This document shows, piece after piece, positions 41-30,358 of a DNA stretch of 37,909 nt. Origin of the DNA: Candidatus Pacearchaeota archaeon (lineage in GTDB: Archaea; Nanobdellota; Nanobdellia; Pacearchaeales; GW2011-AR1). A model generated the notes under the pieces. That model was not told the DNA's origin. It saw nothing but the letters and a program-made list of their open reading frames with translations, and did not search any database. Positions within the stretch are counted from its first letter, which is position 1, and the number at the start of each line of letters is the position of its first letter. The position numbers and the translations under genes were made by a program. The DNA is taken from contig VGKR01000001.1 in assembly GCA_016866915.1 (NCBI GenBank), positions 1-37,909 on the forward strand, in the 5' to 3' direction.

Positions 41-1903
41 TTATACAAATCTTATTTCAAGTCCTTTACTCTCAAATAAAATATGATTGTTCTGCAATTG
101 CTCAAGAGTTTCTGGTTTTGGTAAACCTTCTGTATAAATTTCAACAGAATTTGAGCCCATTAATTCTGATTCTAAAATATAATAATTCTGAATTCCTCCT
201 CCAGAAAGAACCTGGGAAAGAGTTTGCTCTGGAATTTCAATTTCAAAACATCTTTCATGCTTTAATCCCAAAACTCCAAGAATTCCAGTTCTTGGAACAT
301 CTAAACATTGCTCCGTTACAACTCCTTCTAAACTAATTGAAGAATCCCGGAAAATATAAACTTGAATTTCATATTGTCCTTCTCCGAGCTCAACAATTTT
401 TTGCTCTGGATAAATCAGGGTCTTTGTGGAATCATCTGAAACAAAATAAATTATTGCTTCTCCATTGAAATTGACTCCATTTAATTTAATTTGAACATTT
501 TTAGAATAAAGTTTTTCCATTATCATATTAATATTTCCAGAAGAAACACTTGAAAACATATATCTTGTATCTCTGAAACCAGGTGCTTTTGCTGTGACAT
601 ATCCATTAATACATTGGGGGAAATTCTCAACAAGTATTCCTGAATTAGATGTTTTGCCGATATAACAAGCATTTGCAAGACATTCATATGAAATATCAGC
701 TTCTATTGGGACATCATTTTTATTTCGAACTCGAACTGTTATTTCTGTGTTTTTATATTCACAGATTTCAGAATCAAAGCTTTCTCCAAGTTCTGCATCT
801 AATGGCTCTCTCGGATTGTTTCCTTGTATAATAACAGCCATAGGAAACTGAAATATTTCATCTCCAAATTGAACCTGTACAAGAACGGGATATTTCATAT
901 CATAAACAAAATGATAAGGAACATAGCAAAATCCAAGAATACCTAAACCAAGCTGATTTCCAATAGGAGTTGATAAGAGAATACTTCCTTCTGCAGGTGA
1001 AACTTCAAAACTATGCGGCCAGTTTTTTGAATTTAAAAAACGAACTTCTTCTTTTACAGGAAGATCAACAAAGAAATAATTCTCTCTTTCTCCAGTTGTT
1101 GTTAAGGCAAAAGTGTTTGCTTCAATAGCTTCTTGTAATTCAGCAAAAACTTCATCTGCTTGCCATATAAGAGGAGAACAAGTTATTTCAGCTCCATCAA
1201 CAGGAGCATAACTCCACAAAACATCTAAACCATATTCTTCTAAAAACAAATTCTCTTGCTGTTTGTCATAAACTTTTTTTGCAGAATCATAAAGATTACC
1301 TAATTGAGAACGCATTGTAATCTTGTGTGTTCTTATCACAGCTGTTTCATCATTCTTAGAGATTTTTAAAGCACTATCAAGGGTAACTTCAATTCTATCT
1401 TCTTTGATATTAATTTTAGATTTTGGCTCTGTCCAGAATATCTCAAAACCTTGAGAATAATATGAAGTGAAATCACAATTATTCATTCTTTGCTCAATAA
1501 AAGTTCCTAACTGATTCTCCATCATTCTTTTTGTCGGAATCTGCTCTTTCTCGATATTATTTCCAGAAACATAATACCAATAAGGAATTGGATTTCCTAA
1601 GAAATTAAGTTGTGATGAAAAAGGCATATAAGAAGAACCTGGTTCAAATTCAGGTAAATAAATATACCCTCCTTGCGAATTCAAGACACTTGCTCCCGTG
1701 GTTGTTGCTCCTTCTAAACAAGATAAAAAATTAGCATAAGCTGGCTCCATCTGAGATGGAATAGTTGTTCCAGTCAAAGAACTTCTTAAAAAAAAGTATG
1801 CCAATATTCCTGCAACAATAAGAATTGCTATGATAATAAAAATAGTTACTTGTCCTTTAGAATTTTTCATAAAAAATCCCTCTTTTCCTCTTTTAAAATC
1901 CAT
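41..1903 (-). CDS. Large secreted/surface protein with class III (type IV prepilin-like) signal peptide; function unknown
   Basis: 620-aa ORF. The N-terminus MDFKRGKEGFFMKNSKG-QVTIFIIIAILIVAGILAYFF has a short basic leader, a K-G, then about 20 hydrophobic residues. The remainder is Cys-containing and looks beta-rich. A stretch (ITVRVRN..YVTAKAPGFRDTRYMF) resembles PEGA/CarboxypepD_reg-type beta-sandwiches, but only weakly. An alternative start is M12 at 1870. A TATA-like box at 1925-1932 lies 21 nt upstream of the ATG at 1903. Confidence 0.6.
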   Translation of the reverse strand: MDFKRGKEGFFMKNSKGQVTIFIIIAILIVAGILAYFFLRSSLTGTTIPSQMEPAYANFLSCLEGATTTGASVLNSQGGYIYLPEFEPGSSYMPFSSQLNFLGNPIPYWYYVSGNNIEKEQIPTKRMMENQLGTFIEQRMNNCDFTSYYSQGFEIFWTEPKSKINIKEDRIEVTLDSALKISKNDETAVIRTHKITMRSQLGNLYDSAKKVYDKQQENLFLEEYGLDVLWSYAPVDGAEITCSPLIWQADEVFAELQEAIEANTFALTTTGERENYFFVDLPVKEEVRFLNSKNWPHSFEVSPAEGSILLSTPIGNQLGLGILGFCYVPYHFVYDMKYPVLVQVQFGDEIFQFPMAVIIQGNNPREPLDAELGESFDSEICEYKNTEITVRVRNKNDVPIEADISYECLANACYIGKTSNSGILVENFPQCINGYVTAKAPGFRDTRYMFSSVSSGNINMIMEKLYSKNVQIKLNGVNFNGEAIIYFVSDDSTKTLIYPEQKIVELGEGQYEIQVYIFRDSSISLEGVVTEQCLDVPRTGILGVLGLKHERCFEIEIPEQTLSQVLSGGGIQNYYILESELMGSNSVEIYTEGLPKPETLEQLQNNHILFESKGLEIRFV

Positions 1904-15123: not shown

Positions 15124-16068
15124 TTAATCAGAAGATTTTGCTCCAGATAAAATCGAATTTTCTGTCATAGGTTTAAATCTTCTATAAAATTCGCTTACTT
15201 TGTTTGCATGATTTAGTGGTTCTCGTATTGTTGGAAGAGTCCATTTTATCGCTGCATTCTCTCCTCCAAAATTATAAGCTGCGATAATATCTCTTAATTC
15301 TGCAAAATAAGGGGTGTTTCTATTAAGTTTAGCTAAAATAGCTAAATATCTAACTCCGGCATCAATGCTTTTTTCAGGATTTAATCTTTCATCTAAATCT
15401 TTATTTTCTAATAATGTCCTTTTATATTCCCTAAATAAAGCATCAGCTTTTTTAGAATAAGAATTATATTCTCTAAACCATTTGATTGCGTCATTGTAAT
15501 TTCCTCTTCTACCCTCATTAGTTGCAGAATTAAATGAATTCACAACTCTTCTTCGGTTTTCTTTCAGATTTTTATAGATATCCATATTTCCCTCATAAAT
15601 CTTCAATCCCAATCCTTTAGCTGTCTCTGGAATTATTTGCATAAGGCCCGCTGCTCCTGCTATAGAAACTGCATTCGAATCAAAGTTAGATTCTGCATAG
15701 ATTAATCCCAATACAACAAGAGGGTCTAAATAAAATATATCTTGATGCTTCTCAACACTATCTACAACAAGAGGCAGAAAAGGTTTAGAGGCAGGATGAT
15801 GTTCTGCAATAGCTTCAAGATTCAGATACTGTACTGATTCATTGATTAATAAAAAAGAAATTTCGGGAGAATTGATAAAATTCAAAATAGTTGAATTTCT
15901 TTTTTCTTCTAAAATATTTTCTAAATCAATCGATTTTTTCAAGATAGAATTAATTTCTACAGAGATTTTCTCTTTTTTGAAAATCTCTATTTTCTTCGAA
16001 GAAATCTGACTCATAACTAAAAAAGGTAAAAGAACTAGTCCTGCTTTTGGAATTCTCATTTTCACCAC
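15124..16068 (-). CDS. Secreted SLT-domain lytic (murein) transglycosylase
   Basis: An N-terminal signal or anchor (LVLLPFLVMSQISS) is present. Three SLT family signatures appear in order: LIYAESNFD (catalytic Glu-Ser), AAGLMQIIP and IIAAYNFGGENA. The start lies 6 nt after the radA stop. Confidence 0.8.
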   Translation of the reverse strand: MVKMRIPKAGLVLLPFLVMSQISSKKIEIFKKEKISVEINSILKKSIDLENILEEKRNSTILNFINSPEISFLLINESVQYLNLEAIAEHHPASKPFLPLVVDSVEKHQDIFYLDPLVVLGLIYAESNFDSNAVSIAGAAGLMQIIPETAKGLGLKIYEGNMDIYKNLKENRRRVVNSFNSATNEGRRGNYNDAIKWFREYNSYSKKADALFREYKRTLLENKDLDERLNPEKSIDAGVRYLAILAKLNRNTPYFAELRDIIAAYNFGGENAAIKWTLPTIREPLNHANKVSEFYRRFKPMTENSILSGAKSSD

Positions 16069-18999: not shown

Positions 19000-19623
19000 A
19001 TGTTAACACTCGAACAAACAGAAGAACTAAAGAACGAGATAATATCTCAGATTGAAAAAAGTTTTCCAGAGCAAAAAAAAGAATTTGCAATTAGTCAAAT
19101 AGAGGCTATGAATTCTGAGCAATTAGAAGAATTTTTGAAGAAAAATAAAATTGAATATGCAAAATCCGGTTCTACAGAATGTCTTTTTTGTTCAATAGTT
19201 TCAGAAAATATTTCTTTCTATAAAATTGATGAAAGCAAAAATGCTCTGGCTGTTTTAGAAATAAATCCTCTTTCTAAAGGACACACTCTGATTATTCCAA
19301 AAGAACACCTTTCTTCTTCAGAAAAAATGTCTTCAAATGTTTTTTCTTTAGCTAAGAAAATTGCAAAAAGATTAAAAAATAAATTTAAACCGAAAAATAT
19401 CGAAATTTCTTCTACTAATCTATTTGGACATGAAATAATAAATGTGATTCCGGTTTATGGAGATAAAAAATCAGAAAAAAGAACTTCTGCAAAACCAGAA
19501 GAACTTTTAGAAATTCAAAAAATTATTTCAGCACCGAAAAAAATTTATAAAAAACCAAAAAAGAAAAAAATCGCAATTAAAGAGTTTGAGCCAAATATCT
19601 GGTTACCAAAGAGAATTCCCTAA
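19000..19623 (+). CDS. HIT-superfamily protein with N-terminal extension and degenerate histidine triad
   Basis: CLFCSIV and GHTLIIPKEH are HIT-fold hallmarks. Where HxHxHxx is expected, the sequence reads GHEIINVIP, with only the first His kept. About 60 extra N-terminal residues are helical and acidic, and the tail is Lys-rich. Confidence 0.6.
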   Translation: MLTLEQTEELKNEIISQIEKSFPEQKKEFAISQIEAMNSEQLEEFLKKNKIEYAKSGSTECLFCSIVSENISFYKIDESKNALAVLEINPLSKGHTLIIPKEHLSSSEKMSSNVFSLAKKIAKRLKNKFKPKNIEISSTNLFGHEIINVIPVYGDKKSEKRTSAKPEELLEIQKIISAPKKIYKKPKKKKIAIKEFEPNIWLPKRIP

Positions 19624-20478
19624 AAAGCTCCACAAAGTCTCAAATGCAGATGTCTTCCAAAAATAAAAGACAATTAAGAAGCTAATCACAAATACAGGAG
19701 AAAAAGGCACGCCGTATCTAATCAAAATTGTTTTATATTTTTTCTTTAACGAGATTATTTCCTGTTTAGTCAGTCCATTCCAATTTGCCCGGATTATTTT
19801 TTTATCAATTTTCACATTTTTATATAGCCAATCTCCTTCTCTAAGCTGACTTGTTTTGACCTCTTTAACTAAGCAAGCTTCATCAACAGATTTAACATAA
19901 ACATAAAAATAAGGTAACAGAAATATTAGAATTCCTAAAATAAAAAACACCTCCTGCCAAAATCCAAAAATCATCAGAATTAATCCAAAAATAAAGGCAA
20001 GATAGATTCTTTTCTTATTTTTCTTGAAAATTTTAGAAAATTCTTTCTTAAACATATAAAAATTACTAAAACTTAGATATATTGTGGAGAAGATAGTGTA
20101 AAGTGCTCCGACAATAAAGAATATGAAAAAGAACATTAAAAATATATTCAAATTAACTGAAAAACTCTCTGAAAAAGGTAAAATTGCTCCAAAAGCCATC
20201 ATAAGTTTTGCATCACCTCCTGCAAAGAATTTTCCATAATACAGCAAATTCGCCATTACAAAAAAGATTCCTACGCCAATAAGCCCTTGATAAAAAAAGG
20301 AGAAATTTTCAGAAAACAAAGAATAAAAAAATCTAAAACTCAATGCAAAGATTATCAAAGAAATATTTAGCCAGTTTGCAATTTCTCGAGTTTTTAAGTC
20401 CTGAATAACTGCAAATATCAACCAAACTAATGCTAATAAAAATATGAATATTAAGTCCGCCATAGAAAAAAATAGCAA
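19603..20478 (-). CDS. Type IV prepilin/preflagellin peptidase (A24 family; PibD/EppA/FlaK-like)
   Basis: Polytopic membrane protein carrying the two catalytic Asp motifs: VIQDLKTREIANWLN and FFAGGDAKLMMAFG. A C-terminal GVPFSPVF is also present. It is the last gene of the filament operon. Confidence 0.8.
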   Translation of the reverse strand: MLFFSMADLIFIFLLALVWLIFAVIQDLKTREIANWLNISLIIFALSFRFFYSLFSENFSFFYQGLIGVGIFFVMANLLYYGKFFAGGDAKLMMAFGAILPFSESFSVNLNIFLMFFFIFFIVGALYTIFSTIYLSFSNFYMFKKEFSKIFKKNKKRIYLAFIFGLILMIFGFWQEVFFILGILIFLLPYFYVYVKSVDEACLVKEVKTSQLREGDWLYKNVKIDKKIIRANWNGLTKQEIISLKKKYKTILIRYGVPFSPVFVISFLIVFYFWKTSAFETLWSFLGNSLW

Positions 20479-20681
20479 ATAATCTTTATAAAATGCTCGG
20501 CGATATTTGTCTTATTCTATTTCTTCCTCCTTTTTTATAAGGATGTTTCTTTTTTTCTTTCTTCTTATCTCTTTTCTTTTTTCTTTTTTGAGGAAAGTCA
20601 TAATCCATAAGTAAAGAATAAATTTCTGATTTAAATATTTTTCAGAATTCGATTAAATTCAATTTAATCCCATAATGCCCA

Positions 20682-21038
20682 CTAACTTGTCGGCTGTGGG
20701 CATCTGGATTCTAATTGCGAACACTTTGCAATACCATATTGTACAAATTCATTTTTTGTAGAAAAGGAAAAGCAAGTGCCCTTCACCTCTTTAACTCCCC
20801 CAGGAAGTCCATCTGCTTTTAAAGTTCTTTCTTGAGTGCAAAAATCATAAACATTTTCCGTTGAACAAGCAATACCACAATTAGTTTTTATTTGCTCAAC
20901 ATTATTTCCAGAAAAGAAAGGAAACAAAGTTCCCCAACCAAGTGTGAATCCTAATATCATAACAACCAAGACTACAACACCAAGAATTATGAGAATAATA
21001 GCATTTGTGCTTAAGCCTTGTCCTCTTTTATTTTTCAT
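20682..21038 (-). CDS. Prepilin-like protein 1 (class III signal peptide), Cys-rich
   Basis: Begins MKNKRG-QGLSTNAIILIILGVVVLVVMILGF. The predicted mature part has 6 Cys. Confidence 0.65.
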   Translation of the reverse strand: MKNKRGQGLSTNAIILIILGVVVLVVMILGFTLGWGTLFPFFSGNNVEQIKTNCGIACSTENVYDFCTQERTLKADGLPGGVKEVKGTCFSFSTKNEFVQYGIAKCSQLESRCPQPTS

Positions 21039-21081
21039 ATTAATTTCAAGGTTATTTTGTTTAAAAATGTTTTTATTTAGT

Positions 21082-21399
21082 TTACTCTGGAAGATTGTAT
21101 CTTACGCGCACCGAATTATTTTCCAGAAGAACATATTTAATTTTTAATTTCTCATCATATTTAATATCAAAAATTTGGATGATTTCTGATTCATCAAATC
21201 CTAATGAGGAATATAAATTTATTTTTTCCTTTATTATTAATGCTTCTTCAATTATCCCCGAAGGAGTAAAATCACTTTTTGGAGATTTGCTTGAAATAGA
21301 AAAACTAAGAATTGCTACTATACAAATAGCAAGAATTCCCATTACAAGAATTGTTATAGATATATCTCCGCGTTTGTTTTTTAGAATATTTTTCATCAT
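21082..21399 (-). CDS. Prepilin-like protein 2 (class III signal peptide)
   Basis: Begins MMKNILKNKRG-DISITILVMGILAICIVAILSF. Its start lies 1 nt after the stop of the upstream gene. Confidence 0.6.
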   Translation of the reverse strand: MMKNILKNKRGDISITILVMGILAICIVAILSFSISSKSPKSDFTPSGIIEEALIIKEKINLYSSLGFDESEIIQIFDIKYDEKLKIKYVLLENNSVRVRYNLPE

Positions 21400-21400
21400 T

Positions 21401-21868
21401 TTAGCAGTGCTTAGTTAGTGTAATTAAAATGTATTTATTTTCTTCTAATTGAACTTCATCCCAAATTCCCCGTCCGCAGGGAGAGGGCTTTGGAAAGTAA
21501 ATATTGTGGGTTATCCTATTTGGTTTAGAATAAATAACAGACCAAACCAACCAATAATCTTTATTATAAAATTCTTCAAATATACTAACAGCTAGTTCTC
21601 CATTGAATTTCGTAAAATTTCCATCTTCTTTTATTTTTTCATAAATAATTTTATCTTCTTCTAACTCTTTTGTTAGAAGATATGAAAAAAGAGATTTTGA
21701 CGCAAGAACATCTACTTTTTTAGAATAATCAAATTTTTTATTATTTCCCATAAAAGTTGCAATAGAAATTGATATAAGCAGAATTACAATAATGATTAGT
21801 GTTGCAACAATCCATGTAATTGCCTCTCCTGTTTGTGCTCTTTTATTTTGTAATTTTTTAATAAACAT
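21401..21868 (-). CDS. Prepilin-like protein 3 (class III signal peptide)
   Basis: Begins MFIKKLQNKRA-QTGEAITWIVATLIIIVILLISISIA. Its start overlaps the upstream gene by 11 nt. Confidence 0.6.
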   Translation of the reverse strand: MFIKKLQNKRAQTGEAITWIVATLIIIVILLISISIATFMGNNKKFDYSKKVDVLASKSLFSYLLTKELEEDKIIYEKIKEDGNFTKFNGELAVSIFEEFYNKDYWLVWSVIYSKPNRITHNIYFPKPSPCGRGIWDEVQLEENKYILITLTKHC

Positions 21869-22355
21869 TTTTTTCTGTTTTTCTTACAATTGAAATAAGA
21901 TTTATTTTGTATGAATTTCCTTCTTTATCTAAAGAATATAAGCTTCTTTCGAGGCATATTGGAAAATTTTTTTCATTCTGTCCGCAAAAATCTTTTAGTT
22001 GTTTATTGCCCTCTTGTAATGAAAGAACTTTCTCATAAGAATCAAATTTCAAAATCTCGACCCCTAAATAATATTGCTCTTGTTCTCTCCAACCATAAGA
22101 ATCTTCTACTTGAAGATTTAAATTGCAAAAATTTCCAAAATTTCCCTTAAAATCTTCTCCAAAAACTCCTTCTTTAAGATAACCTCCTTCAGAAACACAT
22201 CGTGCAATTTTAGAGATTAGTAAATCAGCTTCTATCTGTCTTACATCATAAGGTTTTCCGTAAAAAGTATGAACCATATAAACAATTGCAGCAGCTACAA
22301 TAAACAATATTACAAACCAATAAACTGAAATTAATTTATCTCCTTTTTTATTCAT
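21858..22355 (-). CDS. Prepilin-like protein 4 (class III signal peptide)
   Basis: Begins MNKKG-DKLISVYWFVILFIVAAAIVYMV. The mature part has 4 Cys. Confidence 0.6.
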   Translation of the reverse strand: MNKKGDKLISVYWFVILFIVAAAIVYMVHTFYGKPYDVRQIEADLLISKIARCVSEGGYLKEGVFGEDFKGNFGNFCNLNLQVEDSYGWREQEQYYLGVEILKFDSYEKVLSLQEGNKQLKDFCGQNEKNFPICLERSLYSLDKEGNSYKINLISIVRKTEKNVY

Positions 22356-22356
22356 T

Positions 22357-22749
22357 TTATTCTATCACAAAATAATATTTTTCTTCGCTTTCAGTATCAA
22401 ATCTCGCAGTGATTTGCGCATTATTGAAAAAAGAATAACTATATCCAGCTCCATCACGCAATCTAACTGTGACAATATTCTCTCGAATAGTTACAATTGT
22501 TCCGAAATTAATTGAATTTTTTTCAGCCATTTTTAACGCATCCCCCATTTCCAAGTGAATTATCATCCCAGATTCTGCAGCATCAAGAGCCAAAGCTATT
22601 TGTTTAGCGTATCTTTCTTCCAAAACAGCTGCACTAGCTGTACGTGAAAATAAAAATATCGCCAATATCGAAAGAAAAACTAAATTAAGGATTAGAAAGA
22701 TTATATTTTCTGTCAAAATTTCCCCTTTTTTATTAGATTTTTTTCTCAT
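22357..22749 (-). CDS. Prepilin-like protein 5 (class III signal peptide)
   Basis: Begins MRKKSNKKG-EILTENIIFLILNLVFLSILAIFLF. There is a 1-nt gap to each neighbouring gene. Confidence 0.6.
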   Translation of the reverse strand: MRKKSNKKGEILTENIIFLILNLVFLSILAIFLFSRTASAAVLEERYAKQIALALDAAESGMIIHLEMGDALKMAEKNSINFGTIVTIRENIVTVRLRDGAGYSYSFFNNAQITARFDTESEEKYYFVIE

Positions 22750-22750
22750 T

Positions 22751-23488
22751 TTAAGCTTTTGTTAAAAAAACATCACAGCCAAGAGTTTCATAGCTTTCTT
22801 TATTTTTTTCTAAAATAAGAACCGGAACATGAGAACTACCGAACAATCCCCAAATAATTTTTCGCTCCATTCCTGTTAAAATAGAGTAGGTCTTATCAAA
22901 TTCTAAATTTTTATTAAGATATTCTTCAAATGGAAATTCCTCTGAAGAAGTTAGGGCATACAAATACTGTAGGTATGTTTCTGATGTCGTTTTAGGAGTT
23001 TTACTTAAATAATCATAAAATTCTGCATATGAAATTGATGTGGTTGTCTTAAGAATTTCATCAAATTCAACAATTGAGCAAAGAGCGCAAGAAGTTCTTT
23101 GAGTCAGAGCTGTATTTGCATAAGTTATTTCTCCTTCACCAAACATCCACCAACAATCAGACATTTCATCTGCAAGAGCTTTCATAATTTCTTTTTTAAT
23201 ATCTTCTTCATTTTTAGAACTAATCTTAACTGTAGATGTGGGTGTTATTTCTTTACACTCTTTTCCTCCTGAAATGCAAAGATAATTTGTTCGGCAATCA
23301 AGAGGCCCTGCTAATCCTGCTGATTTTGCCTTTAGAACAACAGAATTATGGCAAATTTGTTTATTTGTTGTTTCTCCAAGATTCAATCGATATAGCAAAA
23401 AAAGAATAATAATAAAGCTCACTATAAGAACAATTATTATAACAAGTTGTTTTGTTGTTAATTCCCCTTTTTTGTTTATTTTTTTCAT
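22751..23488 (-). CDS. Prepilin-like protein 6 (class III signal peptide), Cys-rich
   Basis: ORF 22751..23563 was trimmed to M26, giving MKKINKKG-ELTTKQLVIIIVLIVSFIIILFLLY. The mature part has 8 Cys. Confidence 0.6.
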   Translation of the reverse strand: MKKINKKGELTTKQLVIIIVLIVSFIIILFLLYRLNLGETTNKQICHNSVVLKAKSAGLAGPLDCRTNYLCISGGKECKEITPTSTVKISSKNEEDIKKEIMKALADEMSDCWWMFGEGEITYANTALTQRTSCALCSIVEFDEILKTTTSISYAEFYDYLSKTPKTTSETYLQYLYALTSSEEFPFEEYLNKNLEFDKTYSILTGMERKIIWGLFGSSHVPVLILEKNKESYETLGCDVFLTKA

Positions 23489-23596
23489 TTTTATCAAATT
23501 ACACCTAGTTTTCTCAGTAGAAGATAAATTCCAGTAATAGCTAAAGCAAAAAATACAATCCAAACGAGATATTTGATTAATTCTTCAGTATCCATT

Positions 23597-24076
23597 TTAT
23601 TTTATTCTTAAAATTTTTTTATTGTTATGGTCTATAGAGAGCATCACCGGAGGATTTTCTATTTTTATATTATTATCAAAAGACAGGCCCTTTAAATTTT
23701 CTATGCAAATCCCATTTTCATCACAAGAATTCGGATTTTCTTTTTTGCAAATACAGATACAACCATTCCAATCTAAATTTGAACAGAAATTTGGCATTCC
23801 TATTTTTTCGTTTTTAAGAAACAAAAATCCATCAGAATAAGAATTTGGCCACGAATAAATTATCCAATTTCTTGGATTATAAATTTCAACCGTTGATTTA
23901 TCCTCATTTATTGTTTTGTTTAGGAGATTAATAGAGGCTTTAGCTAATTCTAAATTTGCAGAATCTTTATTTGTGCTATAAATCGAAAAAAGCAAATAGG
24001 CAAGAAAACCTATAGCAATTACTGCAAGAATTATCTTAAGTGTTTCTTCAGCTAATAAAAAACCCTTTTTATCCAT
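23597..24076 (-). CDS. Prepilin-like protein 7 (class III signal peptide), Cys-rich
   Basis: Begins MDKKG-FLLAEETLKIILAVIAIGFLAYLLF. A C-terminal cluster NFCSNLDWNGCICICKKENPNSCDENGIC contains 6 Cys. Confidence 0.6.
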   Translation of the reverse strand: MDKKGFLLAEETLKIILAVIAIGFLAYLLFSIYSTNKDSANLELAKASINLLNKTINEDKSTVEIYNPRNWIIYSWPNSYSDGFLFLKNEKIGMPNFCSNLDWNGCICICKKENPNSCDENGICIENLKGLSFDNNIKIENPPVMLSIDHNNKKILRIK

Positions 24077-24085
24077 TTTTGTATA

Positions 24086-24244
24086 TTATTTTATCAATGC
24101 TAAGATTAATTCTGCTGTGACATTTCCTCCCCTAAAAAATTCTATGACATAGATTCTAAAGAAAAGATAAATTCCTAAAACAACTACAACAAAAACTAAA
24201 ACTCCAATGATTATTTTTATAAGATTTTCAAGTGTCAGTTCCAT
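24086..24244 (-). CDS. Micro-ORF (52 aa), single-TM protein; not in the ORF track
   Basis: Hand translation gives MELTLENLIKIIIGVLVFVVVVLGIYLFFRIYVIEFFRGGNVTAELILALIK. The start codon directly abuts the stop of the upstream micro-ORF (24244/24245). The stop is 10 nt before the next gene. Confidence 0.4.
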   Translation of the reverse strand: MELTLENLIKIIIGVLVFVVVVLGIYLFFRIYVIEFFRGGNVTAELILALIK

Positions 24245-24412
24245 TTATCCTCCTAAAAGACTTTTAATTTGATCTATGAGGGATATTCCTCTTCCGCGCA
24301 ATAAAAAGATAGTAATCATTAAAATTACAAGAACTGCAACAGCGATCAGAATCCATGGAAGATACTCTGAGATTATTGCTTTTTTTCCAATCCTCTTTTT
24401 AAAAAATTTCAT
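24245..24412 (-). CDS. Micro-ORF (55 aa), Flp-like candidate pilin; not in the ORF track
   Basis: Hand translation gives MKFFKKRIGKKAIISEYLPWILIAVAVLVILMITIFLLRGRGISLIDQIKSLLGG. It has a basic leader with Gly, then AIISEY followed by a hydrophobic helix. This resembles the Flp prepilin G/xxxxEY motif. Confidence 0.45.
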   Translation of the reverse strand: MKFFKKRIGKKAIISEYLPWILIAVAVLVILMITIFLLRGRGISLIDQIKSLLGG

Positions 24413-24451
24413 ATAAGAAAAAACAAATCCTATTTAATAAATTTAACTAAA

Positions 24452-26614
24452 TCAAACCAAATTTCCAAGAACTATGTTTACAAGAACAAACAATGCAAGT
24501 GTGGAGAAAAGAGCTGTAATAAAATAAAGAATTATTCCAGAAGCAAAGTTTTTTCCAAGATTGTATGTTGTTTGAAGTTTATCTTCTCCAGAATCAACAA
24601 TAACCAAAGTTCTTGTTAGTATAAAAATAATTTGAATCAGGTAAACTCCGATTACTATCTGCAAAAAGTAAGGAGGAATCATCATTTGAACATCGAAAAG
24701 TTGAGATAAAGATGCAAGACCACCTAAAGATGCAGTTGCTTCTCCTCCTTCTGCAATTTTTGTTATTTCTAAACGAGTAAGAATTTCAGTAATCATTGCA
24801 GCTAAACCGACAACAACACCTGAAAGAAGAGGTGCGAGGAAAGACATATTACTTTTCATATCAGATACAACTTCAGCAAGCATATCTCTAAGTCTTGCTG
24901 TTATCTTGGAAATATTCTTAACATATTCAGAGATACTCATTATGCTAATAGCTGCAATCTTTAATCCTTTTTTAGCAGATTCAACAAGAATTTTCATGCT
25001 AATAGCAATCAATTCAGAAGGATAATGAATAATTGCGCCTCTTTTCAAGTCAAAAATAGCTTTTTCTACACTCATTCCCATTTGCCTTATGTTATAATCA
25101 ACTCTTCTGAAGAAATCCTCTGTTTTCAATCCTTTAGAAGATTCTGCAACTTTTGCAAAAACAAGTTCAGGTGGAACTCCTTGCCCTATTCTATTTCCAA
25201 CTTGAAACAGAGAATTATTAAATTCAGCTTCAAGTTGTTTTGTTTTGTCTCTTTCAAAAATAAGTTCTTTCGTTCTCATTTTAAAAGACAAAGAAAAGAA
25301 TAATGCAATACTAAGTGGAACCAACATGCTTAAAATTAAAGCACCTGCTCCAAAAGGCCCTTTAAGTCCCGTGGATGATTCAATAAATCCAAAAAAACTT
25401 CCTTCGCCAAAAAAACTTAAACCGAATTCTGAAAAAGAATAATCTTTTTGCAAACCCAGCATCTCTGGTAAGGGAGTAAATGCAAAAATAAGGGGCAAAA
25501 GTCCGATTAATACAATAGGTAATATCAAAAGAAATGATTTAACATAAGATGCTTTGCTTTTATATTGATAATAAAGGGGGTTTTTTTCAAGTAAAGATGT
25601 TTCTCCATATCCTCCTGGTCTGAGAAAGGTAACTTTGTCGGTTAAATAAAAAACAAAAAACGGAATAATCAAATTAAACAAAACAAAAACATGAATCCAT
25701 GTTAGCAATCCACCTAACATCGCACTTGCAAGAGGAAGTAAGGCTAAACCAAGTGTTGGAAGAACAATGCCCAGCATATAAACATTTGTTAAAGGACTTT
25801 TTACATTGTGCGTAAATCTCAACATTTTGTCATAAACTCCATCAAGAACAACTTTCAAAGCTTTCTCAAGAGTTGTTATTCTTCTTGATTCATCAGGTTC
25901 ATATAAACTGCTTTCAATAAGATGAAAGGCTTCGATAAATTCTACTGAATAATCTCTCCAAGTTTCGAGATAAGAATCTAAACTGGCCTTTATGGTTGAA
26001 AATTTTCCTACCTGAACATCATAAAAAACTTTTTTTAAATCCAAAGCAAGAGGATATTCTAAATTCTCAGAGGCAAAAGCAATTGCTCTTTCCAGATTAG
26101 AGGTATGCCTCATGTAAACAACCACATATAGAATAGCAGGAACCATTTGAGCTGAGGCTTTTAAACGCCATTTATTTGCAAGCCGCGCAGGATAAGCATT
26201 CATAAAATAAAAAATAAAAATAGAGAAAATTATAACAAGAAAAAAGAACAAAACAGGAAAAGCTTCGAAACTTCCGTTAATTAAAATAACAGCTAAAGAA
26301 ATAAGAAGTCCTGCTAAAAAAACAAAAATGAAAGTCATAACACTTAGTGTTAAGGATTGCCAGGATTCAAGATCAAGATGTGCTATCTCAAGATGTCTTT
26401 TAACTTTTTGAGTATCTTTTTCTGAAAATTTTAATTTTATTGCACTTCCTAAACTTTTGCATAATCTTTCATATCTCGAGATTTCGGGAATCATTTCATC
26501 CTTGAATTTTACATATTCTCTGCTATAATCTACATTTTTTCTTTCTGAAGTAGAAATTTTGGAACCTAATTTACTGCTATATCTTCTAAGAATTTCATCA
26601 ACATCTTCAGACAT
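24452..26614 (-). CDS. Polytopic membrane protein, putative type IV filament platform (FlaJ/TadC/PilC-like)
   Basis: 720 aa. A cytoplasmic N-terminus of about 90 aa is followed by many TM helices interrupted by two soluble helical blocks. It lies immediately downstream of the secretion ATPase. The assignment rests on synteny and topology; I could not verify the T2SSF domain by eye. Confidence 0.55.
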   Translation of the reverse strand: MSEDVDEILRRYSSKLGSKISTSERKNVDYSREYVKFKDEMIPEISRYERLCKSLGSAIKLKFSEKDTQKVKRHLEIAHLDLESWQSLTLSVMTFIFVFLAGLLISLAVILINGSFEAFPVLFFFLVIIFSIFIFYFMNAYPARLANKWRLKASAQMVPAILYVVVYMRHTSNLERAIAFASENLEYPLALDLKKVFYDVQVGKFSTIKASLDSYLETWRDYSVEFIEAFHLIESSLYEPDESRRITTLEKALKVVLDGVYDKMLRFTHNVKSPLTNVYMLGIVLPTLGLALLPLASAMLGGLLTWIHVFVLFNLIIPFFVFYLTDKVTFLRPGGYGETSLLEKNPLYYQYKSKASYVKSFLLILPIVLIGLLPLIFAFTPLPEMLGLQKDYSFSEFGLSFFGEGSFFGFIESSTGLKGPFGAGALILSMLVPLSIALFFSLSFKMRTKELIFERDKTKQLEAEFNNSLFQVGNRIGQGVPPELVFAKVAESSKGLKTEDFFRRVDYNIRQMGMSVEKAIFDLKRGAIIHYPSELIAISMKILVESAKKGLKIAAISIMSISEYVKNISKITARLRDMLAEVVSDMKSNMSFLAPLLSGVVVGLAAMITEILTRLEITKIAEGGEATASLGGLASLSQLFDVQMMIPPYFLQIVIGVYLIQIIFILTRTLVIVDSGEDKLQTTYNLGKNFASGIILYFITALFSTLALFVLVNIVLGNLV

Positions 26615-26693
26615 TTTTATTTTTCTCTTTTTGAATTCCTCTTTATTAAAACATCAAGGAGAAATAGTTAATAAATTTTGGGTTTAAATCAAA

Positions 26694-28979
26694 TTAAATA
26701 AATTTTCTCTTCTTTATTTCAGAATTTAACCATTTTTGCCATTCTGGAAAAACTCTTTCGCTGATTGGCAGTCCTATTTCTTCTCTTATTTCATCTGAAA
26801 TTTTATGAAAAACATGATTAGAAAGAGTGTTAAAATCAGCCTCGAGAATTCTATAATTTTTAATTTTTTCAGCAGTATTTACTAATTCTTTTTTTAGTTT
26901 TGCTCTTAAAAGGATATTATCCCAAACAGCATCCCAATTTCCCGCCCAGCCTTTTACATTAGAAGCAACATCTTTTATAACTTCGCTATCTCCATTAATC
27001 AAATCTTCTGTTGGTTCTAATTCATCTTTATCGACATTATACTTTAATAAATCAACAAATCCTTTCTCTTCCAGAGGATCTTTTTTCCAGTGTTTTCTGA
27101 CTTCAGACAACCCCACAACTCTTTTCCAGGAATGTAATCCATCAGGTGTTTTTATTGGATTTGCAACAGCAATTATGTCTGTGGCTTTAAAACTAGTTGC
27201 AGGCACCTGTAAGTCATTAACAACTCTGTCAAAAACACCATATGGAGAAGCTCCATGAATTGTTCCTGCAACAACATTAGCTAAGGCGCCAATTCTCATT
27301 GCCTCGTATAAAGCTCTTGCTTCTAAGCTTCTTACTTCTCCAATAATCAAACAGCTATCACCTAATCTAAGAGATGTTCGTATTCCATCATCTGCAGAGA
27401 TTTCTGTTGTTTCTTTTAATAAAGCAGATCTTACTTTCATTCTCAAAATATCATATTTTAAATTTCTAAGAGATTCCACAGGCAATTCTAATGAATCTTC
27501 AATAACAATTATTCGATATTTTGGAATAATTTCGAGCATTAAACTTCCCAGCAAGCTTGTTTTTCCTGAGCTTCTCGTTCCTGCAATCAGAATTGTTCTA
27601 GAGCCATCTGTCAAAAAACTAAGAAGTCCTGCAGCCAAAGGATTCATCATCTTATTTTGGACAAATAATGGAAATGTCCAAGGAGATTCTCGATGTCTTC
27701 TTATTGCATATGCAAGCCCGTCAGGAGAAAGAGGTCTCTGAACAACAGCTATTCTTGCTCTGATACTCCCAATTTCAAGTTGAGTATCTAAAATAGGATT
27801 TGCTTCATCGAGGGGCCTTCCTGAGATTAATCTAAATTTAGCTGCCCAGGAATCAATATCTTCTTGGCTTGGAATTATATTTGATGAACATTCGTCATAA
27901 TCCTGATGTCGAATAAAAATTGGTGTCAGCGAAATAGGTGCATTTAAAGAAATATCCTGAATTCGCTTATCTTGCAAAAGAACCTCGATAATTCCAAAAC
28001 CAACAGTATGCCTCACTAAAATAGTTGCTAACAAATTAAGTTCAGAGTAATTAATGATTATTCCTTTGCTTTGTGCAAGATCTCTCAAAAGATCTCGAGA
28101 AATATTAAAAAAAACTCTTCGTGTTCTTTCTATATCTGTAAATTCTTCTGCTTTTGGCTGATGTTCCACTAAAACTCTTCTTGCCAGATTCAAAAGAATA
28201 CTATGGTCTTCTCTTAATGTATTTTCAGGAGGAATAATATGATACAAAAGTTTGGGTTCATCTTTTTTCTTAAGAATTGTCACAAAAGAAACATCATACT
28301 CCTCATTAACCAGTTTATACTGGTCAAGTATCTCTGCATCACTTGGCAAATCAGATACCAATCTCGTAAAAGTAAAATTAGGTATTACATCTGGTTTGAA
28401 AAGTTTGTTGTAAATCTCTCTTTCTCCTTTTCGATAATCGTCTAAATAAGGAGTTGCATCAGAAATTAATTTTGTTTTTTCTAAAAATTCTTTAATTTTT
28501 TCAAGAAGATTTAAATAGATAAATTGATCTGATCGGCTTGCTCCTCCTAATTTTTCAAGAAATATTTTTTCCTGGATAATTAATTTTTTTATTTCAAAAA
28601 ACGCTGCAAGAGGGTCTTGTTTTAACAAAATCAGAAAGGAAAAGACCTCATTATATCTTTTAGAAAAAAGCATGTCTTGTGTTGGAGCTAATTTATTTTT
28701 AGAGAGAATTCTTTCGTGTTTCATAAGATAAGTATAAAGTTGTGCAATTTCAATAAGATAAGAAGTTTCTCTAAAATCATAATTATAATTTTTTTGTTGA
28801 GAAAATATAATTCTTGAGATATTTGGGTTTTCTGCAATAACATCAATAGTTCTTTCCATAACTTCCGGGAAATCTGCTAAATTTGGAACATAGGGCGCGC
28901 CCAGATAATTTAGATAAAGAACATCTTCACCCCCCTCTCTTTTTATTTCATAAGGATTTCTTTCTTTTTCTTGCGTCAT
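26694..28979 (-). CDS. Type II/IV secretion-system ATPase (FlaI/PilB/VirB11 superfamily), long form
   Basis: Walker A IAGTRSSGKTSLL sits at residues 467-474 by my count. Also present are the Asp box/Walker B RIIVIEDSLELP, IIGEVRSLEA and the His box GTIHGAS. At 761 aa it has about 200 extra N-terminal and about 150 extra C-terminal residues compared with typical archaeal FlaI-type ATPases. Confidence 0.88.
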   Translation of the reverse strand: MTQEKERNPYEIKREGGEDVLYLNYLGAPYVPNLADFPEVMERTIDVIAENPNISRIIFSQQKNYNYDFRETSYLIEIAQLYTYLMKHERILSKNKLAPTQDMLFSKRYNEVFSFLILLKQDPLAAFFEIKKLIIQEKIFLEKLGGASRSDQFIYLNLLEKIKEFLEKTKLISDATPYLDDYRKGEREIYNKLFKPDVIPNFTFTRLVSDLPSDAEILDQYKLVNEEYDVSFVTILKKKDEPKLLYHIIPPENTLREDHSILLNLARRVLVEHQPKAEEFTDIERTRRVFFNISRDLLRDLAQSKGIIINYSELNLLATILVRHTVGFGIIEVLLQDKRIQDISLNAPISLTPIFIRHQDYDECSSNIIPSQEDIDSWAAKFRLISGRPLDEANPILDTQLEIGSIRARIAVVQRPLSPDGLAYAIRRHRESPWTFPLFVQNKMMNPLAAGLLSFLTDGSRTILIAGTRSSGKTSLLGSLMLEIIPKYRIIVIEDSLELPVESLRNLKYDILRMKVRSALLKETTEISADDGIRTSLRLGDSCLIIGEVRSLEARALYEAMRIGALANVVAGTIHGASPYGVFDRVVNDLQVPATSFKATDIIAVANPIKTPDGLHSWKRVVGLSEVRKHWKKDPLEEKGFVDLLKYNVDKDELEPTEDLINGDSEVIKDVASNVKGWAGNWDAVWDNILLRAKLKKELVNTAEKIKNYRILEADFNTLSNHVFHKISDEIREEIGLPISERVFPEWQKWLNSEIKKRKFI

Positions 28980-29127: not shown

Positions 29128-29463
29128 ATGATGGAGGAACAAGGGGGTGGAGATTGGCAATTCTTAAATGATATTCAGGTAAGAATAAGAGATTTAGAAG
29201 AAAAACATCGGACTCTAAAAGATCGAATCTTGCTTATAGGTCAAAATTTGATCGAAATGAAAGAAAAAAATGATGAGGATTTATTGGAAATCAAGAAAAA
29301 TCTCGAATTAATGAGAAGAAGTATCGAAAGATTAACTTCTTTTTTGGAAGTTGCTTCATCAGAATTTTCAAAATTTGCAAGAAAAGAAGATCTTGAAATT
29401 CTCTCAAAGCAAGCAAGAATGTTTCAGCCTTTAGAATTGAGAAAAAAAAGATTTAAAAAATAA
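29128..29463 (+). CDS. Small coiled-coil protein, unknown function
   Basis: 111 aa with heptad-like Leu/Ile/Glu/Lys spacing throughout. The segment LTSFLEVASSEFSKF is faintly reminiscent of the archaeal FlaC-type accessory motif, but this is not verifiable by eye. Confidence 0.5.
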   Translation: MMEEQGGGDWQFLNDIQVRIRDLEEKHRTLKDRILLIGQNLIEMKEKNDEDLLEIKKNLELMRRSIERLTSFLEVASSEFSKFARKEDLEILSKQARMFQPLELRKKRFKK

Positions 29464-29479
29464 AAGATAATAATTCAAA

Positions 29480-30358
29480 ATGGGGACTTTAGAACAAGTG
29501 ATGGAATTAAAAAGAAAGGGATTTCCAGAAGAGGCAATTGTTAGCAGATTAAGAGAACATGGAGTTTCTCCAAAAGAAATAACAGATGCCTTAAGTCAGG
29601 CAAAAATAAAAAATGCAGTTTCACCAGGAAGAGACTTAGAAGAAGATACTATGGAGGGTATGGAGCCTTCGATAATGATTTCTGAAGAAGCAGAATCTTT
29701 GCCTACAGAAGGTACAATTTCAGATGAGGATTTGATGCCTCCGCCAACACCTTCGAGATTTCAACAATATGCAAAAAGAGAATCAGCACCAGTAGTAAAA
29801 GAGATGCCTGAAGAATATTCTTATTCTAATTCTCAAGGATCAGCACAATATCCAGCACAGACCGAATCTCCTTATGAACAATATTCAGAATCACCTTATC
29901 CTGCTTACGACGAACCGCAATATTCTCCCCAAGAATACGCATCAGGAAATTATGAGAGTTCAGGAGAATATGATTACAGTTATTCGTCAGCAGGAGATAT
30001 CGACACCATAATTGAGGTTGCAGAAAGAGTATTTTTTGAAAAAATAAAACCAATTCAAAAACAACTTGAGGGTTTAAATGAATTAAAAGCATTAACTCAA
30101 ACCAAAGTCGATTCTATCTCAGACAGATTAAGAAAGATAGAATCAAGTATTGATAGATTGCAAGCAGAAATTCTCGAAAAAGTTGGTTCATATGGCGGTG
30201 GTTTAGATAGTATAAAAAAAGAAATGGGCATGATGCAAGATTCTTTTGGAAAAATTGTTACTGTTTTATCTTCTAAAGCAGAAGAAAAATCTCCAGAGCA
30301 TTCTTCACATCATCCGGCACACCACATAGTTAGAAAAAAGAGTTCTAGAAAGAAATAG
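29480..30358 (+). CDS. Three-part protein: N-terminal small helical (UBA-like) domain, Tyr/Ser/Glu/Pro-rich disordered linker, C-terminal coiled coil with His/Lys tail
   Basis: 292 aa. The N-terminal helical bundle is LEQVMELKRKGFPEEAIVSRLREHGVSPKEITDALSQA. Residues 113-168 contain 13 Tyr by my count. The C-terminus is heptad-rich and ends HSSHHPAHHIVRKKSSRKK. Confidence 0.5.
   Translation: MGTLEQVMELKRKGFPEEAIVSRLREHGVSPKEITDALSQAKIKNAVSPGRDLEEDTMEGMEPSIMISEEAESLPTEGTISDEDLMPPPTPSRFQQYAKRESAPVVKEMPEEYSYSNSQGSAQYPAQTESPYEQYSESPYPAYDEPQYSPQEYASGNYESSGEYDYSYSSAGDIDTIIEVAERVFFEKIKPIQKQLEGLNELKALTQTKVDSISDRLRKIESSIDRLQAEILEKVGSYGGGLDSIKKEMGMMQDSFGKIVTVLSSKAEEKSPEHSSHHPAHHIVRKKSSRKK

Follow-up and report, generated by a model that had tools for sequence, protein, structure and literature searches.

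A conserved type IV filament operon of Pacearchaeota whose platform and pilins are missed by standard annotation

The first 37,909 nucleotides (nt) of contig VGKR01000001.1 of Candidatus Pacearchaeota archaeon (assembly GCA_016866915.1), hereafter the window, that is, the whole stretch of DNA analyzed, carry a gene cluster for a type IV filament (TFF). Twelve consecutive open reading frames (ORFs), all on the minus strand between positions 19603 and 28979, encode together an A24 prepilin peptidase, an assembly ATPase of the PilB/FlaI/TadA type, a platform protein with two T2SSF repeats, eight proteins that bear class III leaders and one pilin-like protein that has none (Table 1). All four features of the TFF superfamily are found here: the ATPase motifs, a T2SSF platform, an A24 peptidase with its two Asp residues, and class III substrates. 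The cluster represents a variant found across the lineage, in which standard annotation misses the platform and the pilins. We consider it probable that these genes specify a complete, non-archaellar archaeal TFF system by which an ultra-small cell adheres to a partner cell. Adhesion, possibly to bacteria, is its most likely role, the rival functions being those of a display or secretion pseudopilus and of an uptake pilus. A preliminary description, made from the sequence alone, had recognized a minus-strand type IV filament operon in this region; all twelve of its ORFs were recovered where it had placed them, the ATPase, platform, leaders and peptidase were verified, and none of the three findings that it had named as grounds for refutation was obtained.

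The ATPase matches Pfam T2SSE (1.7e-13) and, among NCBIfam models, FlaI (2.8e-34; 118.8 bits against a cut-off of 550) and TadA (3.5e-34; 118.5 bits against 373), with an alignment to the FlaI model that spans nearly the full length. Scores are weaker for BasE (61.5 bits, cut-off 1000), for TrbB and VirB11 (57-59 bits), and for ComGA and PilT. Comparison with the PDB gave GspE of Archaeoglobus fulgidus (afGspE, 2OAP; 2e-27), CpaF (5e-22), FlaI (4e-14), VirB11 (~1e-6) and PilT (~1e-4). When 72,556 plasmids were searched by tblastn, the best match was the T2/T4 ATPase of Haloterrigena (40% identity, 2e-53), followed by CpaF/TadA, and neither VirB11 nor TrbB was among the best 25 of 461 matches; a comparison of the two ATPases with each other gave 35% identity (E 3e-60). 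The sequence motifs were all located: Walker A at residue 467 (GTRSSGKT), the Asp box at 493 (IEDSLE), Walker B at 544 (LIIGEVR) and the His box at 573 (TIH). Judged by relative scores and the plasmid-wide search, which were used in place of a tree, the protein appears to belong with the ATPases of archaeal type IV pili (T4P), CpaF and FlaI rather than with VirB11/TrbB.

The alignment with afGspE begins at residue 215 of the ATPase, against residue 28 of the afGspE chain, and the N-terminus therefore carries about 190 amino acids (aa) extra. This extension of ~190-215 aa is lineage-specific, and the N-terminal 215 aa have no relative in the PDB or NCBIfam. N- and C-terminal, subsystem-specific extensions have been described for archaeal TFF ATPases. 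The remark in the preliminary description that the components are of unusual size proved overstated: solved relatives of the ATPase are 423-513 aa long, but the loci of archaeal system 2 have extended ATPases and single large platforms, and a haloarchaeal pair measures 648 and 604 aa. This pair, the closest annotated ATPase-platform pair, lies on plasmid pHTUR04 of Haloterrigena turkmenica (locus L081, 7212-10980), where its neighbors are a helicase, ParA and a DUF87 gene, and annotated pilins are absent from the vicinity; its ATPase and that of the window have in common an unusual Walker A variant, GTRxxGKT. The window ATPase is identical to an NCBI protein of Ca. Pacearchaeota archaeon annotated as 'type II/IV secretion system ATPase subunit'. 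An orthologue of 1,296 aa (P0300) contains intein and LAGLIDADG domains (PF14890, PF14528); in some relatives, then, an intein resides in the pilus ATPase.

The platform protein has about nine hydrophobic segments and belongs to a large family with more than 3,200 close homologues (1,153 representatives at 50% identity). Pfam T2SSF is matched by 15 of 47 diverse homologues, at best with 3.2e-10, and these matches map to residues 163-294 and ~468-550 of the window protein. Alignment of the family by hhalign with the 604-aa 'secretion system protein' encoded beside the Haloterrigena ATPase extends over 566 columns (Prob 100, E 8.4e-40). An AlphaFold2 (AF2) model computed from the 47 diverse sequences reached a pLDDT of 83 and a pTM of 0.82; these were used instead of 16 close homologues, from which the model was unusable (pLDDT 49). 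In Foldseek searches this model matched the cytoplasmic domains of EpsF and OutF locally (prob 1.00, target TM 0.69-0.76, rmsd ~3 Å). As judged from the homologue matches, the hhalign result, the predicted model and its local superposition, the 720-aa protein is a T2SSF-type platform with two repeats.

The prepilin peptidase matches Pfam Peptidase_A24 (2.1e-14), NCBIfam FlaK (1.5e-9; 37.8 bits against a cut-off of 330) and, weakly, the Arc_PepC C-terminal domain. It most likely starts at the ATG at 20463, giving 286 aa, and in this numbering the catalytic residues are Asp22 and Asp84 (GGD). A conservation scan of one genome per GTDB species, with the closer alignment as query, retained 80 loci, all from close relatives, and tblastn found the peptidase gene in 44 of them. 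In a 263-aa protein (P0498) encoded on a metagenomic contig of 3,485 bp, Pfam detects Peptidase_A24 as well as SLT, which reflects either an artificial joining during gene calling or a genuine fusion between a prepilin peptidase and a murein hydrolase.

Class III leaders were sought in a six-frame translation of the window as [KR][GAS] followed by a strongly hydrophobic stretch of at least 17 residues and preceded by a non-hydrophobic leader after the ATG. Thirteen matches were obtained, nine of them at true ORF N-termini, eight of which lie in the cluster. Because 200 random sequences of the same dinucleotide make-up gave a mean of only 0.25 matches (maximum 3), the observation is real and far above chance. 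The leaders, read as [KR]-[GA] followed by a hydrophobic helix (/ marks the cleavage site in the motifs given here), are kept at the N-termini of orthologues in the 80 related loci. The earlier count of two micro-ORFs and seven genes with [KR]-G leaders thus needs amendment: both micro-genes are conserved, but the 55-aa protein also carries a leader, which makes eight, and the 52-aa protein is pilin-like and leaderless. By their translated N-termini, then, the cluster holds eight prepilin-like genes and one leaderless pilin-like gene. Searches of Pfam and NCBIfam placed none of these nine small proteins in a curated pilin family.

The best-conserved small protein is that of 55 aa, with 52-80% identity across species and the orthologue consensus K[KR]G/[IV][IV]S[DE]YLPW followed by a hydrophobic helix. 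It is a short prepilin without a globular domain, Flp/Epd-like in architecture; a 2026 survey of TFFs connects the major pilin of Epd with the emergence of Tad. An identity as Flp was not supported, as the Flp_Fap model matched neither the window protein nor 15 orthologues, and the likeness is one of architecture only. The 52-aa gene follows directly (0-nt gap) and was found by tblastn in 39 of the 80 loci; the N-terminus of its product, M(A/S)ELT[IL]xxLIKIILG, resembles the mature N-termini of the neighboring pilins. In a distant relative whose platform is ~25% identical (L082, 3432-3721), the platform is followed by a leaderless hydrophobic ORF of 33 aa and a 57-aa prepilin (KKG/QMLWPFLL...). 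The pair of micro-genes would therefore be older than the Pacearchaeota operon.

The remaining small proteins are more varied. The motif [KR]G/FLLAEETLK is conserved among orthologues of the 159-aa protein, which thus have Phe+1 and Glu+5, a combination that is the signature of bacterial type IV pilins and is unusual in archaea; the protein has a weak match to the GspG N-terminus (E 0.03) and no other family match. The +1 residues are unusually heterogeneous within the operon, Phe+1 of this protein standing beside E, D, Q or I in its paralogues. The 270-aa ORF, with 11 Cys, most likely starts at an internal ATG to give a 245-aa protein (MKKINKKG/ELTT). Its Cys pattern and an ADCWWMFGEG motif are kept in 14 aligned orthologues; it has no relative in Pfam or the PDB, where a profile search returned noise (bile acid receptors, E ~0.07), and it is a candidate large minor pilin or adhesin. 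The 155-aa protein has only a weak match to DUF3139 (E 2.6e-4). The site of the 105-aa protein reads G/D[IL][SP][IV]TILV in orthologues. Finally, the N-terminus of the 118-aa protein is nearly invariant, with a variable C-terminal domain whose Cys residues are conserved.

Table 1. Genes of the filament cluster and two further proteins encoded in the window.
Feature	Position	Strand	Characteristics
Secretion/assembly ATPase, 761 aa	26694-28979	-	Pfam T2SSE; PilB/FlaI/TadA branch
Polytopic platform, 720 aa	24452-26614	-	divergent FlaJ/TadC/PilC-type; two T2SSF repeats (predicted)
Short prepilin, 55 aa	24245-24412	-	class III leader; mature ~43 aa
Leaderless pilin-like membrane protein, 52 aa	24086-24244	-	mature-pilin-like N-terminus
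Prepilin-like protein, 159 aa, 6 Cys	23597-24076	-	[KR]G/FLLAEE
Cys-rich prepilin-like protein, 245 aa	22751-23488 from internal ATG (270-aa ORF 22751-23563)	-	KKG/ELTT
Prepilin-like minor pilin, 130 aa	22357-22749	-	KKG/EILTEN
Prepilin-like minor pilin, 165 aa	21858-22355	-	KKG/DKLISVYWF
Prepilin-like minor pilin, 155 aa	21401-21868	-	K[KR][AG]/Q[ITV]G[ED]T
Prepilin-like minor pilin, 105 aa	21082-21399	-	KRG/DISITILV
Prepilin, 118 aa, 6 Cys	20682-21038	-	KRG/QGLSTNAIILI; classic archaeal RGQ site
A24 prepilin (class III signal) peptidase, 286 aa	19603-20463 from ATG (ORF to 20478)	-	Peptidase_A24
Class III signal peptide protein, 620 aa, outside cluster	41-1903	-	leader NSKG/QVTIFIIIAILIVAGIL
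SLT lytic transglycosylase, 314 aa, outside cluster	15124-16068	-	Pfam SLT 2.9e-20

The operon is widespread among related archaea. A close relative of the platform occurs in at least 595 GTDB species representatives, and the 80 retained loci all belong either to records whose titles name Pacearchaeota, Woesearchaeota, Nanoarchaeota or a similar group, or to metagenome-assembled genomes with loose labels. The entire gene order, including both micro-genes and the peptidase, is kept in the loci with full flanks. Compared with the window proteins, orthologous ATPases are 71-76% identical, platforms 63-76% and pilins 27-58%. The flanking housekeeping genes (HIT, EF-1beta, RPA) are also syntenic, and the synteny therefore demonstrates vertical inheritance, not a functional linkage of every neighbor; the operon is vertically inherited across Pacearchaeota and Woesearchaeota.

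Among known systems, the cluster fits archaeal system 2 by its layout. In the published text, this system has an ATPase extended at its N-terminus, only one platform gene, and several pilins, among them a pilin-like protein that lacks a class III leader; each of these is found in the cluster. With the adhesion pili of system 2 or clade 2 (Haloferax volcanii PilB3C3 with PilA, the Archaeoglobus loci and afGspE) it shares an ATPase gene followed by a single large platform gene; A. fulgidus GspE is the closest solved structure to its ATPase, and both proteins of the haloarchaeal ATPase-platform pair are homologous to those of the cluster over nearly their full length. It differs in that no small protein matches a known archaeal pilin family, in encoding its own peptidase, and in having no MinD-like gene. 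A 2016 census placed 'nanoarchaeal' ATPases, without cognate pilins, in clade 2 and in subclade 4F, and for the present ATPase clade 4F is the alternative to clade 2.

Other traits recall archaeal system 1, the Epd pilus of Methanococcus maripaludis, and the bacterial Tad/Flp pilus: some 11-12 genes gathered in a single cluster that encodes its own prepilin peptidase, a very short, headless pilin with a [DE]-Y pair near the cleavage site (compare Flp G/xxxxEY), and an ATPase related to CpaF/TadA. The platform, however, is one fused protein rather than TadB/TadC or the split platform of system 1, the cluster lacks genes for TadZ/CpaE (ParA-like) and for a secretin, and the acidic-aromatic pair of the 55-aa pilin lies at +4/+5 instead of +5/+6. 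Both assignments were rejected, system 1 for the absence of its defining split platform despite the headless pilin and in-cluster peptidase, and Tad/Flp on account of the single platform gene, the missing ParA-like and secretin genes, the lack of a Flp_Fap match and a TadA score below cut-off.

How such a filament would work can be outlined from these parts. The peptidase would remove the short basic leaders from the prepilins, and a hexameric ATPase would dock on the cytoplasmic bundles of the platform; together, ATPase and platform would extract processed subunits from the membrane and assemble them into a polymer by way of their hydrophobic N-terminal helices. Either the 55-aa headless pilin or the 118-aa RGQ pilin, each a candidate for the major pilin, may make up the body of the filament. 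The 130-, 165-, 155- and 105-aa proteins would form a priming or tip complex, the Cys-rich 159- and 245-aa proteins would be exposed accessory subunits, and the filament would attach the ultra-small cell to its partner. Size fractionation in a groundwater study indicated an unusually strong attachment of Pacearchaeota to hosts. The host-attachment role proposed in the preliminary description remains an inference, with some support from the peptidoglycan-hydrolase modules that occur on orthologous pilins.

These modules came to light in a scan of 135 small-protein orthologues. Of 42 complete orthologous operons, 7 have a pilin with an SLT or Amidase_2 module in the interval from platform to peptidase, and the modules occur in the families of the 130-, 165- and 105-aa proteins (p130, p165 and p105), inserted or appended behind class III leaders. 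In the 165-aa family, Amidase_2 (3.3e-21) is inserted at two loci (L018, 16711-17901; L074, 10268-11488), and a third orthologue, of 362 aa (L062, 17099-18187), has an SLT-like insert detected by phmmer (2.8e-08) with no Pfam match at E 0.001. The 105-aa family carries SLT (~1e-15) at three loci (L022, 15298-16116; L037, 15252-16067; L050, 15896-16699), as does the 130-aa family at its C-terminus (L023, 10618-11628; L030, 7759-8799; L047, 11096-12091), and further cases involve Amidase_2 (L013, 16512-17735) and SLT (L038, 12352-13113). The SLT pilins with the same leader as the 105-aa protein comprise at least 110 protein clusters, all PF01464, none of them annotated as a pilin; a class III leader was present in 10 of 10 sampled N-termini, and the SLT motifs QES and GLMQ are intact. 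It is because modules are borne by three of the four tightly packed genes that we take these four to encode the tip or priming complex. Hydrolase-armed pilins, present in relatives and not in the window, are the most interesting lead to come from this analysis.

The window encodes a separate SLT protein outside the cluster, which also matches NCBIfam lytic transglycosylase models and has a short, Sec-like hydrophobic N-terminus that is not of class III; an orthologue lies downstream of the operon at one related locus (L004, 16358-17329). From its sequence, the protein may be secreted or anchored, and is a possible functional partner of the operon. The archaeon that encodes it would be expected to lack murein. 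In the literature, murein transglycosylases of Pacearchaeota and Woesearchaeota have been taken as a sign of bacterial hosts, and peptidoglycan hydrolases are reported to be frequent in Nanoarchaeota; neither of these papers ties the enzymes to pilins.

Because SLT or Amidase_2 modules occur on orthologues of three of the four tip-candidate families, and a separate secreted SLT is encoded here, a bacterial cell wall is plausible as the partner surface. It is possible, although at present we would not favor it, that the filament is specifically a wall-directed organelle whose p130/p165/p105 tip presents SLT or Amidase_2, or works with the separately secreted SLT, so as to anchor to or breach the peptidoglycan of the host. 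A comparable grafting of functional modules onto or into small pilins is known from the modular type IV pilins of bacteria, such as Streptococcus sanguinis PilB with its vWA module; in the orthologous operons, by contrast, an archaeal carrier bears murein hydrolase modules, and the window's own pilins are not modular. The main text of the survey of bacterial modular pilins contains neither 'archaea' nor 'peptidoglycan'. A functional parallel is offered by episymbiotic Patescibacteria and Saccharibacteria, which are reported to be ultra-small and genome-reduced and to associate with their hosts by means of T4P. Their machinery is of the bacterial type IVa pilus (PilB/PilT/PilC), and with the archaeal cluster it shares only deep TFF homology.

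The same pilin modules could be read differently, as enzymes anchored on a short surface pseudopilus, a 'bindosome-like' scaffold whose leaders hold and display enzymes or binding proteins for scavenging, for example of murein fragments. The number of pilin-like genes (eight plus one) with no obvious abundant major pilin, and the absence of a retraction ATPase from the cluster, are consistent with such a scaffold, and the 2026 survey argues for functionalized TFF machineries in substrate scavenging. We nevertheless think it unlikely. The strongly conserved, headless short pilin is the building unit of thin filaments of the Flp/Epd type, and the bindosome (Bas) itself was rejected, the BasE score being far below its cut-off and none of the nine small proteins having a substrate-binding-protein domain.

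A DNA- or nutrient-uptake pilus of the competence type, feeding a metabolically minimal genome, is quite improbable. The relationship of the ATPase to CpaF, to which both the extension and the retraction of Tad pili have been attributed, would suit such a function, as would literature accounts in which Pacearchaeota have a minimal metabolism and may subsist on scavenged nucleotides. Yet neither the cluster nor the scanned ORFs of the window encode ComEC, DprA, a ComEA-like protein or a DNA-binding domain, no second, PilT-like ATPase is present, and there is no hint of DNA binding in the pilins. An archaellum or an apparatus for conjugation or type IV secretion (T4SS) can be dismissed as extremely improbable: the ATPase, platform and peptidase are homologous to FlaI, FlaJ and FlaK, and the ATPase matches FlaI over nearly its full length and VirB11/TrbB more weakly, but ATPase and peptidase fall far below the FlaI and FlaK equivalog cut-offs, no archaellin, FlaH or FlaF/G (absent also according to the preliminary description), nor any FlaCDE/X or stator/switch protein, was found in the cluster, VirB11/TrbB score about half of FlaI/TadA and are missing from the best plasmid matches, and no VirB4, VirD4 or relaxase is present.

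Several points weigh against the interpretation of the cluster as an adhesive filament. The platform itself has no direct match, to T2SSF or otherwise, in Pfam, NCBIfam, PDB sequence or PDB profile searches; the global E-values of its model in Foldseek are not significant (best 0.2), so that only the local domain matches are convincing, and its internal repeat is weakly detectable (hhalign E 0.003, Prob 10) and was not relied on. The leader scan is a home-made heuristic. The window's own pilins have no recognizable adhesin or hydrolase domain. Conserved order alone is no proof of functional linkage for each gene, as synteny extends well beyond the operon. What goes beyond the identity of the genes is inference, the filament of this lineage being known from genes alone.

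Pacearchaeota are among the most genome-reduced archaea, and to our knowledge none has been cultured. The operon, in this setting, is a concrete candidate for an attachment organelle. The groundwater study cited above reported T4P components to be 'missing in DPANN genomes' and on that basis used pili to call attached ultra-small cells Candidate Phyla Radiation (CPR) bacteria. Yet at least 595 representatives of related species are shown here to possess a TFF operon that is complete and highly conserved; it was plausibly overlooked because the platform and all pilins escape Pfam and NCBIfam. The window alone holds an ordinary, if divergent, archaeal TFF cluster with an already annotated ATPase. 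The hydrolase pilins of orthologous operons, however, tie known archaeal murein hydrolases to a delivery structure, and the hypothesis of a bacterial host thereby becomes testable. If the organelle is indeed wall-directed, it would provide a molecular mechanism for the episymbiosis of an archaeon on a bacterium across domains, and would overturn the published claim of missing T4P components in DPANN genomes.

The G+C content is ~30% throughout, with no compositional break. The gaps between genes of the cluster, earlier put at 0-80 nt, measure -11 to 79 nt, apart from a spacer of 203 nt that separates the 118-aa gene from that of the peptidase. The genes for the 130-, 165-, 155- and 105-aa proteins are tightly packed, with gaps of 1, -11 and 1 nt, the 165-aa gene overlapping the 155-aa gene by 11 nt. 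The two spacers of the 118-aa gene (43 and 203 nt) contain TATA-like A/T elements, which suggests internal promoters before this gene and before the ATG of the peptidase. A Lys-rich ORF of 40 aa at 20486-20608 (minus strand), inside the A-rich 203-nt spacer, is probably not a gene.

The neighboring genes are archaeal housekeeping genes, as had been observed before: RadA, RPA, aEF-1beta, SRP54, an SRP54-type (FtsY-like) GTPase, HIT, a helicase, an arginase and four tRNAs. The operon had also been called self-contained, and this does not fully hold, given a further class III signal peptide protein near the start of the window. This 620-aa protein passes the same leader scan as the cluster pilins and has no Pfam domain in the Pfam scan; a NCBIfam match to SleB (E 5.8e-4; 19.8 bits against a cut-off of 236.5) was rejected as noise because Pfam failed to reproduce it. 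Tied to the operon solely by the shared leader type, it could be an extra substrate of the cluster peptidase or a large adhesin-like pilin.

Two conserved genes lie divergent from the ATPase gene on the plus strand, one at 29128-29463 for a coiled-coil-looking protein of 111 aa and the other at 29480-30358 for a protein of 292 aa that has a helical domain at its N-terminus, followed by a low-complexity linker and a C-terminus of coiled-coil-like appearance. Neither protein has a family match, and since synteny extends to unrelated housekeeping genes, the pair cannot be assigned to the filament system. It is reminiscent of the coiled-coil accessory protein described for the halobacterial subclade 4F. 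Each of the two genes was found by tblastn in 49 of the 80 loci, compared with 58 for the ATPase.

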